Source: Eledone cirrhosa | Taxonomy: Eukaryota | Direction of reading: 5' to 3' | DNA: 64,000 bases | NCBI GenBank assembly: GCA_964016885.1 | Contig: OZ024750.1 | Location: 43,834,001-43,898,000 of the forward strand | Shown here: piece by piece, positions 9,414 to 52,476 of the stretch | How the letters are laid out: every line of letters starts with the position of its first letter | Position numbering within the stretch: position 1 is the stretch's first letter | Notes under the pieces: generated by a model | Databases searched by the model: none | What the model was told of the DNA's origin: nothing | The model's input: the letters and a program-made list of their open reading frames with translations, nothing else | Program-made: the position numbers and the translations under genes

Positions 9414-9534
9414 ATAACGAAGGAAATGTGGTAAGGAACCAGGTGGACCATAACGCACCAAAGTACTCAATACTTGGGGTAGTAGAGTGGGTAATAGGAA
9501 CCAGTAAGACCCCAGGGGTCTTACTGGTTCCTAT
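9414..9534 (-). mobile_element. Fold-back mini-element (family T) in (TA)n
   Basis: Shared constant segment (GTGGTAAGGAACCAG..CCATAACGCACC..AGTACTCAATACTT) plus perfect 20-bp inverted repeat 9494-9513/9515-9534. Confidence 0.85.
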
Positions 9535-10158
9535 ATATATATATATATATATATATATATATATATACATATATATGCATATATGTAAATATATTAATAT
9601 GTGTAGAAGTAAACACAGTAAACCCGTATTTTATTTGTATATGTAAATATATATATTTATATACATATATATGCATATATATACATATATGTGCATATAT
9701 ATATATATATATGTGCATATATATATATATGCATAAATATATATATATATGCATATATATATATATATATGCATATATATATATATATATGCATAAATAT
9801 ATATATATATATGCATATATATATATGCATATATATATATATGCATATATATATATATATGCATATATATATATATATATGCATATATATATATATATGC
9901 ATATATATATATATGAATATATATATATGCATATATATATATATAAGTTATTCCGGGTTGAATCGGAGGTATCCATATGTGAGTGCGCATATGTGGGGTG
10001 ATACATTCCCCCATATATATATATATATATATATATATATACACACATATTTATATATATATATATATATATAAATCTATATATATGAATATATAAATTT
10101 CATTAACAATTCCGTTCATCTATTTGAAGAACACTTATAGCTAACATTTGTATTGTAG

Positions 10159-10269
10159 ATACCGCCGCCATTATTCAGTATAACTTGATATTATATGGCT
10201 GCCAAATTCAATTTCACACTATAGAGAATCATGGAAGTGTAATATGTTTTTCGACTGTTGTGACTTGGG
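10159..10269 (+). other. Candidate internal coding exon
   Basis: GCTAAC branch-like motif, TTGTAG acceptor, G|GTGAGA donor, 111 nt, open in phase 1 (TAAIIQYNLILYGCQIQFHTIENHGSVICFSTVVTW); no recognised homology. Confidence 0.25.
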
Positions 10270-11415
10270 GTGAGATCATACATTTGAAGAAAATAAGCTG
10301 TCATATCACAAATCGCCAATAGACAGTAACTAGTCTATCTTCTATTATATCTGTATTATATTTAGTTACTTATCATTTAGTAGATATATAATTTCATATA
10401 TACGCTCATATACATATAGCCGTAAAGAGATACATGAAAACACACACACACATATATATATATATATATGCACATAGACTTAGTCACACATAAATATGTA
10501 TGTATAAATATATTTATACATACATACATACATACATATATATATACATATATATGTATAAATATATTTATACATACATACATATATATGTATAAATATA
10601 TTTTAACATACATTCATACATATGTATAAATATATTTATACGTATATACATACATATGTATAAATATATTTATACGTATATACATACATATGTATAAATA
10701 TATTTATACATACATACATATGTATAAATATATTTATACATACATACATATGTATAAATATATTTATACATACATATGTATAAATATATTTATACATACA
10801 TATGTATAAATATATTTATACATACATACATACATACATACATACATACATACATACATACATATGTATAGATATATTTATACATACATATGCATAAATA
10901 TATTTATACATACATATGTATAAATATATTTATACATACATACATATAAATATATTTATACATACATACATATAAATATATTTATAAATACATACATATA
11001 AATATATTTATACATACATACATATAAATAAATATAATTTCAGCGAGATTGTATTTCGGTGGTGGCCAAAAACAAAACGAAACGCAATCTTCGAGATGTG
11101 CGGCAAGCGCTCAATGGACTAAAAGAAGACCAGAGCAATTAACATACGTTATAGAGGCCAGACAAAATGAAAACAGAGGTCGTGAAGCCATTAGCCACCA
11201 GAAGAAACGATTGTCAGCAATAAAATGTTTTGAACATAGTTTTGATTATTCTGTAATTTATATTCTTGCTCTGTAAAACATCTGATGTATTTACATTGAG
11301 CTATGTTTCTTACTGGTAATAAGGTAGTAATGAATTACTGACCTTTCCAGTTGATAATTATATATAGTGTATATATAAGTATAAATAATATTATTATTAT
11401 TATATATATATATGA

Positions 11416-11608
11416 GGGCGGTGGATTGGCAGTATCGGTGGACGGTCGGACGCCATGCTTTCCAGCATAGTTACGTCCCTTTACGATCTGAGTTCAAATC
11501 CCGCCAAGGTTGACTTTGCCTTTCATCCTTACGGGGTCGATAAAATAAAGTACCAGTAATGCACTGGGTAATTGCTGGCCTTGTGCCTAAAGTAGAAACA
11601 ATTATTAT
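11416..11608 (+). mobile_element. tRNA-derived SINE (main family, about 190 bp)
   Basis: A box TGGCAGTATCGG, B box GTTCAAATCCC, conserved central GACTTTGCCTTTCATCCTTACGGGGTCGATAAAATAAAGTACCAG, (ATT)n tail. Confidence 0.9.
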
Positions 11609-11627
11609 TATATATATATATATATTA

Positions 11628-50560: not shown

Positions 50561-51440
50561 TATATGTATATATATATATGTATATATATATATATGTATA
50601 TATATATATATATGTATATATATATATGTATATATATATATATATATATATATATATATATATATATATATATATATATATATATGTATATATATGTATA
50701 TATATATATGTATATATATGTATATATATATATGTATATATATGTATATATATATATGTATATATATGTATATATATATATGTATATATATGCATATATA
50801 TATATGTATATATATGCATATATATATATGTATATATATGTATATATATATATGTATATATGTATATATATATATATATATATATATGTATATATATGTA
50901 TATATGTATATGTATATATATATATGTATATATATATATATATGTATATATGTATATATGTATATATATATATATGTATGTATATATATATATATGTATG
51001 TATATATGTATATATATATATATGTATATATATATATATGTATATATATATGTATATATATATATATATGTGTATATATATATATGTATATATATATATA
51101 TGTGTATATATATATGTGTATATATATATGTGTATAAATATATGTGTATATATATATATATGTGTATATATATATATATGTGTATAAATATATGTGTATA
51201 TATATATATATATATGTGTATATATATATATATGTGTATATATATATATATGTGTATATATATATATGTATATATATATATAAGTGTGTATATATATATA
51301 TATGTGTGTATATATATATATGTGTGTATATATATATATATATATATATATATATATATATATATATATATATGTAATTATATATGTATATATGTATATG
51401 AATATATATATATGTATATATATGTGTGTATATATGAAAT
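50560..51440. repeat. (TA)n/(TATG) array
   Basis: Directly visible. Confidence 0.95.
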
Positions 51441-51965
51441 ACATACACACATACATAAAATCTATGAGTATATGAACAATTCAATATTGAGGCCAATAAA
51501 TAAATAAATAATTAATAAACTTGTACGAGAAAGAAATTGGAATATTGAATAAATTACAAGACTGATTAATTTCGATCGTTGTTGATCTTCATCAGTTTGC
51601 AGACGCATCATTTCCAAAGACTGCTTATCATTATTGTTTTTATTATTGATGGTGTTGTTGTTATTGTTAATCTTTTTCCTCTTTTTCTTTTCTTCTTCTT
51701 CTACTTCTTTTTCTTTTTCTTTTTCTTTTTCTTTTTCTTTTTCTTTTTCTTCTTCTATTATTATTATTTATTGGGGAAGAAAATAGAAAGCAAACGGAAA
51801 TGAGGAAGTAAAAACATTAGCATATATAATTATCAATTATGTCTTTTTAAAAAAAAAAAATTACCTCCCCGTTCTCCTTCCTATAATCATGTATCATCCA
51901 TGTAGTATTAACACATACAAGAAAGAGAGAGAGAGATGGAAGTAATTTAAAGTTTATTTACTTAC

Positions 51966-52116
51966 ATTTTACAGTGCCATCACTTCTGGTATCAACGTTT
52001 CAGATAAACCATTATTCCTGTATTGCTGTATCACCTTTTTCACAGTTCTTTCGTCTCAGATATTCTTGTACTTGATTTTGGCATATCAGAACCACATTTC
52101 TATACTTCCATGTTGG
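51966..52116 (-). other. Candidate exon (UTR/non-coding or stop-containing)
   Basis: TTTTGTTACAG acceptor and AAT|GTAAGT donor, 151 nt; every frame has a stop (best PTWKYRNVVLICQNQVQEYLRRKNCEKGDTAIQE*). Confidence 0.3.
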
Positions 52117-52279
52117 CTGTAACAAAATAGAATGGATTGGAAACATAGTACACACACATACACACAGACACACATACACACACAGATACACACACACACG
52201 TATATCAATGCCCAAACGCGACCCCACATATATACATATATGTGTGTGTGTATTTATATATATATATATATATATATAT

Positions 52280-52476
52280 ATAACGAAGGAATTGTGGTAA
52301 GGAACCAGATGGACCATAACGCACCAGAGTACTCAGCACTTATGGTAGTAGATTTTTGAAATAGGAAAAAGTATGACCTCGACGGCAGAGCTCAAGCAGC
52401 TTCGACGGCTATTTCTGGACAGAAATAGCCGTCGAAACGGCTTGAGCTCTGCCGTCGGTGTCATACTTTTTCCTAT
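52280..52476 (-). mobile_element. Fold-back mini-element (family T), 56-bp arms
   Basis: Arms 52361-52416 and 52421-52476, GGAC loop; flanked by (TA)n. Confidence 0.88.

Follow-up and report, generated by a model that had tools for sequence, protein, structure and literature searches.

Six elements in the window

The window analysed in this study is a 64,000-nucleotide stretch of the Eledone cirrhosa genome (assembly GCA_964016885.1, contig OZ024750.1, positions 43,834,001 to 43,898,000 of the forward strand), and it contains six short elements between window positions 9,414 and 52,476. These elements are recognised here as 5'-truncated insertions of a Penelope-like retrotransposon (Penelope-like element, PLE) of the Hydra clade, in which an arm carrying the tail of the element generally faces an inverted, tail-less arm. 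We consider it probable that the two target ends created by a cut in (TA)n primed on one RNA, and that the resulting cDNAs were end-joined head to head. The host genome is 3.0 Gb and TA-rich. A 25-nt tail motif had 43,133 exact matches genome-wide, which is a lower bound for the number of tails, and the reversed control had none; the family is therefore not due to chance.

In the following, the predicted scissile C of the hammerhead ribozyme (HHR) of the element is position 0, with minus for 5' and plus for 3' of it. The six copies share a common constant end, are 78-91% identical in pairwise alignments and all start in (TA)n, and four of them close at TTCCTA+(TA)n; an earlier note on this window had described these features apart from the identities, and they were confirmed in the sequence. 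The order GAAA-stem III-GUC|GGGG found in these copies is the 3' half of a real HHR. The true 5' arm of stem II lies about 45 nt further upstream and is missing from all six, and the stem II pairing proposed previously (GACGGC/GCCGTC and GACAGC/GCTGTC) proved to be that of the 3' arm with its own inverted copy.

The first element consists of a tailed arm at 9414..9513 (minus strand), which runs from +100 back to +1, ends at the predicted cleavage site as the note had stated, and is 100% identical to the young natural copy L218. One filler base at 9514 separates it from a tail-less arm at 9515..9534 (plus strand, +1..+20), which belongs to the cleavage-site class counted genome-wide below. The last element shows the main class: the tailed arm at 52280..52420 (minus strand) covers +100..-39, and the tail-less arm at 52420..52476 (plus strand) covers -36..+20, both as mapped on the reference. 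At 46145..46282 (minus strand), a tailed arm from +100 to -37, likewise mapped, is followed by a 9-nt remnant of the partner arm (-38..-30; 46283..46291, plus strand) and then (TA)n, according to our reading of the sequence. The copy at 43727..43925 is of the older E-type subfamily; its tail-less arm (43727..43789, minus strand, +20..-40) was mapped to -28 and followed by eye to -40 against L051 and L107, and its tailed arm (43791..43925, plus strand, -41..+100) carries an 11-nt deletion inside stem III in pairwise alignment. The turn-arounds of these last three copies, previously assigned to stem II, thus lie at -36..-41 in loop II.

Two elements are more complex. The tailed arm at 34435..34602 (minus strand), read against natural copies, extends from +100 to -34 and is followed by a 34-nt tandem duplication (+3..-30), which likely arose after insertion because two private changes are common to both units. 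A short third antisense piece and a tail-less arm of -19..+20 follow (34603..34653, plus strand), joined through a 4-nt stem III microhomology. The turn-around that had been placed in stem III holds for this last junction. In the remaining element, the tailed arm at 42697..42759 (minus strand, +100..+38) adjoins a sense piece at 42757..42989 (plus strand), which was mapped from +80 to about +308, through the tail end into the N-terminus of the open reading frame (ORF). A closing piece of +1..+19 at 42999..43017 (plus strand), read from the sequence, ends in TTCCTA; the note had ended this element at 42777 and missed both the run into the ORF start and the closing piece, which is likely to reflect a template jump from a +1 RNA end onto an ORF fragment.

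As at window 42757-43017, continuations of arms that reach the RNA 5' end into an ORF fragment were seen occasionally in other copies (L064, L076, L079 and L087) and are consistent with template jumping. In addition, about one fifth of the listed short junctions, as well as window 43791-43925, had internal deletions that skip stem III between GCCGTC direct repeats or GTC/GTCC repeats; hairpin skipping by the reverse transcriptase (RT) or later slippage is suggested.

The parent retrotransposon

An intact natural frame of 786 aa was found at L179:3879-6236, which encodes an RT (GLYRDDG) together with a GIY-YIG endonuclease at the C-terminal end (VIYQ..YIG), that is, the single ORF with PLE-type RT and GIY-YIG that marks an endonuclease-bearing (EN+) PLE. 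Other EN+ PLE features were also observed: tandem units (L179 and L218; about 3.5 kb in L218), partial tandems of the pseudo-long-terminal repeat (pLTR), an inverted 5'-truncated copy and an 80-nt tail. The frame contains the motifs SDKT, RLRWR, CNCPDRSIC, CNLC and CKH, with RWR in place of RWK, lacks CCHH and has the endonuclease at its C-terminus. Furthermore, (TA)n followed 90 of 100 tails, which is the insertion preference of the Hydra clade. Placement in this clade follows the motif definition and a by-eye comparison with Hydra-1_Obim. The Atlas neighbours of the parent protein score 0.97-0.99, and some of them carry HTH_animal and GIY-YIG; those at 0.99 are unnamed proteins of 687-713 aa; searches of Pfam and PDB with this protein gave no match.

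Membership in Naiad/Chlamys, with N-terminal GIY-YIG and no canonical HHR, was ruled out by the C-terminal endonuclease and the presence of the HHR. A non-LTR retrozyme, with head-to-tail tandems that each hold a whole HHR, was also ruled out, as the short insertions (hereafter stubs) are head-to-head and hold only the 3' half of the ribozyme. Short direct restarts numbered only 22. PLEs are already known to have an HHR, a tail, an inverted pLTR and (TA)n targeting; the present elements are a new family within a known clade, and their value lies in the junction statistics. No report of such a junction read-out was found in the literature search, which left subscription papers (e.g., on mapping of the Penelope promoter) outside its range.

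The hammerhead ribozyme

The whole HHR region was found in 4,242 genomic copies. The tallies of its core, and those of the -40 ends, +1 ends and host joints below, were made by hand on the first 50-100 listed matches in genome order, mostly on contig C1. Among 100 listed copies, the core was UUGANAA in 77 (with all four bases at N7), CUGANAA in 9 and UUGANGA in 2. CUGANGA, whose presence in full-length copies the earlier note had proposed as a test, occurred in none; since the prevailing core is the published U3-A8 covariant, the ribozyme stands nevertheless. A direct search for CUGANGA gave 128 matches, and the 100 listed were mostly chance matches upstream, with about 20 colinear CUGAGGA copies; the CUGAGGA core is present in older copies.

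The minimum free energy (MFE) fold of a young copy was a type I three-way junction with a z-score of -1.5. In 38 natural copies (of 55 distinct), 90.1% of cells paired, with 92, 87 and 95% in stems I, II and III, respectively, the pairing controls being inflated by the relatedness of the copies. The 3-8 pair was UA in 29 copies, CG in 4, UG in 2 and other in 3, that is, U3-A8/C3-G8 covariation, and G10.1-C11.1 was GC in 34 and GU in 4, with GC-to-AU and UA-to-GC changes in helix II. All parts of a type I HHR were thus found, namely a core with a Watson-Crick 3-8 pair, GAAA, A15-U16 and H17, and stems I-III with G10.1-C11.1. Several observations weaken this picture: the z-scores ranged from -1.1 to -2.3, which is modest, and L039 and L107 had no junction in the MFE fold; the control for pairs changed on both sides was not significant (54/500 shuffles); an Rfam search with the whole HHR gave no match; and about 9 of 100 listed copies have an unpaired C3-A8 core, yet these copies spread. 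Taken together, we conclude that the parent carries a predicted whole type I HHR, mostly with the covariant core UUGANAA. The note had expected a Penelope-like parent with a type I HHR in its pLTR, and both the full-length coding copy and the whole ribozyme were found.

The U3-A8 pair is a published HHR variant of Schistosoma mansoni PLEs (PMC4209133), and the literature consulted on its activity reports the natural variant and gives no rate for it. In a tree of 47 pLTR pieces, CUGAGGA, then CUGAGAA, then UUGANAA were nested in one lineage; this nesting is based on individual rows, its bootstrap is unsettled and some of the flanks are chimeric, so that it supports no order of events. In each of the two deep lineages, C3-G8, C3-A8 and U3-A8 cores occur side by side (L039, L046, L051, L057, L137 and L223), which is possibly a natural compensatory path.

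Arms and outer ends

Arm anatomy was determined for the first 100 tail matches in genome order by mapping the arms on natural reference copies. An inverted partner at the junction was found in 76 copies, 7 extended past the reference, and in 17 none was detected. The tailed arms end at about +100, whereas 75 of the 76 partners end at or before +24, mostly at +20, and both outer ends lie in (TA)n. The priming at (TA)n that had been suggested before is supported. The same three boundaries were observed in run contigs, where loose (TA)n ends occur at +20 as well as at +100 and the depth changes 14-fold at -40; these contigs are of unrecorded kind, and their depth measures neither copy number nor expression.

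The inner ends were less uniform. Of 169 arm 5' ends, 107 fell at -45..-33. The stem II arm had 15 and the core with stem III had 13, while 8 lay at 0..+2, 18 at +3..+45 and 8 at -94..-46, three of the last being mis-binned long copies. Accordingly, the previous view that the turn-arounds map onto the HHR held for the cleavage-site class, but not its assignment of most of them to stems. Fifty of 75 junctions were near-symmetric. In 18 of the 75 short insertions, the tail-less arm extended beyond the tailed arm on the 5' side by 8 nt or more (14 after checking by hand, which removed three mis-called cases and a borderline one); the reverse held in 7. Among 10 young long insertions, which were selected as opposed HHR pairs, 7 had a tail-less arm that exceeded the tailed one by 105-2,437 nt, with an arm identity of 97.7-100%, and the junctions lay anywhere in the element; one more (L220) had +20 at both ends, and another was mis-parsed and left out. 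The two arms nearly always share a subfamily: 78 of 86 pairs differed at no more than two diagnostic letters, and hybrid arms from two subfamilies, which we sought, were rare.

The inner junction differs in nearly every copy, hence the stubs do not amplify. As they also lack the TATA-like box, the stubs were likely dead on arrival. By extrapolation (76% of 43,133), the family would be the source of roughly 30,000 or more short palindromes in the genome, which could form double-stranded RNA if transcribed.

The -40 boundary in loop II

Arms that begin at -40 and are preceded by a non-T base number 10,152, and 3,327 junctions genome-wide have both arms at -40. Among 50 such junctions listed, 10 were perfect palindromes, 5 had a lone C/G and 3 had C-N-G, so that 18 of 50 have loops of 0-1 nt. 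The base at -41 in their 100 arm ends was T in 65, G in 21, C in 12 and A in 2, and 6 of the 50 junctions had the G on each of their arms; an extra G at the RNA 5' end is expected from copying of the cap. Moreover, a start at -36..-49 was likewise seen in 7 of 30 copies that contain the ORF. In most subfamilies, TTAGT/TCAGT lies at -40 with a TATTTA-type box about 30 nt upstream, as compared with the generally known initiator (Inr) and TATA consensus sequences, and the E-type has no such box. Transcription start sites in pLTRs are already known. These results suggest that the -45..-33 boundary in loop II is likely the RNA start site, with a presumed capped start at -40/-44; the -40 class may stem either from the 5' end of the mRNA or from short transcripts of the pLTR.

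Other tallies count against a capped start. Among 100 listed non-T starts, C at -41 was as common as G (47 C, 45 G and 8 A), and arms at -40 joined straight to host (TA)n had no excess of G (7 G, 8 C, 1 A and 84 T of 100). Two junctions of the +1 class also had C..G or C-start fillers, and the extra base may therefore be a terminal-transferase habit rather than the cap. In addition, -40..-44 lies on the 3' strand of a predicted (MFE) distal extension of helix II. Just upstream of -40, some arms had a repeated 5-nt segment or a poly(A) run (L128 and L256-L258), which suggests realignment at the template end, as in telomerase, or a jump to a poly(A) tail.

Ends at the predicted cleavage site

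Both arms reached +1 within 20 nt in 614 junctions. When 50 of these were listed, 19 were exactly +1 on both sides with filler, 6 were blunt, 2 were near, 13 were perfect palindromes on GAG|CTC and 10 were other. A broader pattern that admits shorter arms (779 junctions) also peaked at +1, so the peak is not an edge effect: in 100 arm ends, +1 occurred 38 times, +2 6, +3 6, +4 0, +5 3 and -1 3 times, with 17 at position 0, of which 10 were ambiguous. The window copy at 9414 belongs to this class.

Junctions with +1 on both arms (about 230-330) outnumbered those of -40 with +1 (7-9 of 100 listed, of 1,175), though -40 ends are more than ten times commoner; this ratio is rough, as the two patterns differ in stringency. 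The +1 ends come in pairs, which points to a feature of the template molecule; a cleaved RNA serving for both arms would explain this better than a stall. The sharp +1 peak in the DNA suggests self-cleavage 3' of C17 in vivo, and the minor class that ends at the predicted cleavage site on both arms points to the same. When +1 was paired with a -40 arm, no outstanding peak was seen (7 versus 5, 5 and 4 at -1, -2 and -3 in 100 listed), and jumps from -40 onto a cleaved 3' end were rare (4/22), both of which weigh against the reading preferred below.

Two further candidates were rejected. Retrovirus-like strand transfer onto the cleaved 3' end was unsupported, with 4 of the 22 short direct restarts at position 0, although a precise transfer would leave no trace. 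The G/A variation just after the cut, considered as a ligated junction or an editing mark, was dropped, the first match list having been selected by the query.

Origin of the two arms

In the preferred reading of priming from both target ends, the endonuclease would cut (TA)n and each target end would prime at one of two TA-bordered sites, +100 and +20, which are separated by 80 nt on a single RNA. The two cDNAs would then extend to the RNA 5' end, that is, to the start site, to the ribozyme cut, or further on an uncleaved RNA primed near its 3' end. The common stub would be a run-off copy of the RNA 5' end at -40/-44 or of a short pLTR transcript, the +1 end would be the RNA 5' end that self-cleavage creates (about 1-3% of insertions), and the long arms would derive from RNA that stayed uncleaved and was primed at these two sites in their 3' copy. 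The cDNAs would be joined through a 0-6 nt microhomology (AT, AATT or GAGCTC) or filler, and the ribozyme would set one minor end class by cutting, not by folding the cDNA. The parent, the whole HHR, the two fixed outer ends, the inner pile-ups at -45..-33 and +1 and the arm asymmetry are directly observed. On the other side, the start site and the cleavage are read from DNA alone, arms of the same subfamily fit a fold-back equally well, and palindromes can lose their centres after insertion; a later one-sided deletion remains a caveat for the short insertions.

The earlier note had proposed that a single (TA)n-primed cDNA folds back at hairpins of the ribozyme, serves as its own template and is then reconnected with the target at TTCCTA-TAT. 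The arms are indeed nearly always of one subfamily, most junctions are near-symmetric, some junctions use stem III or loop 3 (the 13 of 50 on GAG|CTC), and self-priming has been proposed for PLE palindromes (PMC3846280). However, a copy cannot exceed its template, and the tail-less arm was the longer one in 14-18 of the 75 short insertions and, among the long ones, in 7 of 10; this excludes a fold-back for the asymmetric insertions unless each had a later one-sided deletion. A hairpin also needs a minimum loop size for priming, and loops of 0-1 nt are too tight; two cDNAs joined end to end explain both the longer tail-less arm and these loops. The main turn-around lies outside the stems, the true 5' arm of stem II is never copied, and the long-insertion junctions lie anywhere in the element. 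We regard a fold-back as improbable overall. A dimer that uses two RNAs, one for each target end, or a single-arm insertion followed by a second insertion into the neighbouring (TA)n, would account for the widely differing arm lengths of the long insertions, the +20/+20 insertion, the few arm pairs that differ at subfamily letters and the 17 copies with no detected partner. This appears just as improbable, since tailed arms have a tail-less partner in 75 of 76 cases, the arm 5' ends are correlated, and no (TA)n remnant is left between the arms.

A somewhat better, though still unlikely, alternative keeps the two-ended priming and takes the inner ends as RT stalls, at the distal extension of helix II (-40) and the foot of stem III (+1), with neither start site nor cleavage. 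The MFE fold puts -37..-44 in the distal helix, +1/0 adjoins stem III, the cap signal is mixed, and for PAc Poseidon (a PLE), PMC11167929 found no reads that end at the cleavage site, the activity of the HHR being dispensable in vitro. On the other hand, a stall is expected on entry into the helix (-23) and not after its unwinding, thousands of long arms pass both points, stalls would strike the arms independently, yet the +1 ends are paired, and a peak at +1 leaves the unpaired C17 uncopied. A TA-specific miniature inverted-repeat element (MITE) or DNA transposon with fixed terminal inverted repeats, which the note had named as a refuting outcome, is hardly credible: the elements are short, palindromic, TA-flanked and of high copy number, but they are colinear with a parent encoding RT and GIY-YIG, their outer ends are unequal (+20 versus +100), and their centres are copy-specific.

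A broader interpretation is put forward tentatively, our doubts slightly outweighing our confidence. Tens of thousands of stubs may be frozen intermediates of two-ended priming on one RNA, which would explain the PLE tail and inverted pLTR in general. The HHR may double as a promoter, a start in loop II giving an mRNA that begins with half a ribozyme and has a complete, deliberately slow (U3-A8) one at the 3' end; an occasional cut by the latter in vivo would yield the shortest stubs. The origin of the inverted pLTR and tail and the cutting of the HHR in vivo are stated to be open in PMC8557442 and PMC11167929. The present family gives base-precise read-outs in high number (a pair of fixed priming sites, a likely start of transcription and a class of ends at the cleavage site), which makes both questions testable.

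Comparison with known elements

PMC8557442 describes a Hydra clade, with Hydra-1_Obim as the published octopus member, that resembles the present family in having RT followed by GIY-YIG, DKT, RW(K/R), a CxCX5C linker, CxxC and CxH around the E/N, no CCHH, a (TA)n target, HHR, tail and an inverted 5'-truncated copy; by eye, the N-terminal 400 aa of the present protein have the same order as Hydra-1_Obim. Hydra-1_Obim is another family, and its HHR is listed there as CUGAAGA with a short stem II. The present family has a 3.5-kb unit with about 1.1 kb non-coding, a long helix II, a U3-A8 core, a tail of 80 nt against 30-40 in the clade and at least 43,000 copies, mostly stubs.

As in the PLE hammerheads of PMC4209133, a type I HHR in the pLTR, U3-A8 covariation, a long helix II, a palindromic loop 3 and HHR pairs on opposite strands were found. 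The full 5-bp stem III folding as a monomer, the likely start site in loop II and the genomic junctions at the scissile bond set the present family apart. According to PMC11167929, a PLE protein cleaves both target strands, extends them, and begins reverse transcription at a pair of internal positions that bound the tail. In that system (PAc Poseidon, in vitro) the target is likewise AT-rich and the RNA mostly uncleaved; the inverted arm is left unexplained there, and no ends at the HHR site were found. Here, both start sites border TA, which makes priming by microhomology possible. The self-priming model for Adineta vaga Penelope (PMC3846280) concerns the same head-to-head pLTRs with a tail on one arm, palindromic junction, and TATA and Inr-like motifs; the arm asymmetry here favours two cDNAs on a sense RNA over self-priming on an antisense template. 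Both arms of the present elements copy the same stretch from two fixed internal sites, in contrast to twin priming. In L1 twin priming, both target ends prime on one RNA, and the resulting inversion is joined by microhomology.

Other features of the window

Two other long, near-perfect inverted repeats of different sequence lie at 44040-44210 and 46690-46850, the second with a TA-rich centre, and are possibly stubs of other elements. An Rfam search of the window gave simple-repeat noise only among the 150 of 438 matches listed. A long low-complexity array of the CACCA/CCAGA type with strong strand skew occupies about 30300-32000, and three remnants of long interspersed nuclear elements (LINEs) with RT or APE domains were found at 26-2983 (plus strand), 23343-24703 (plus strand) and 47674-50307 (minus strand).

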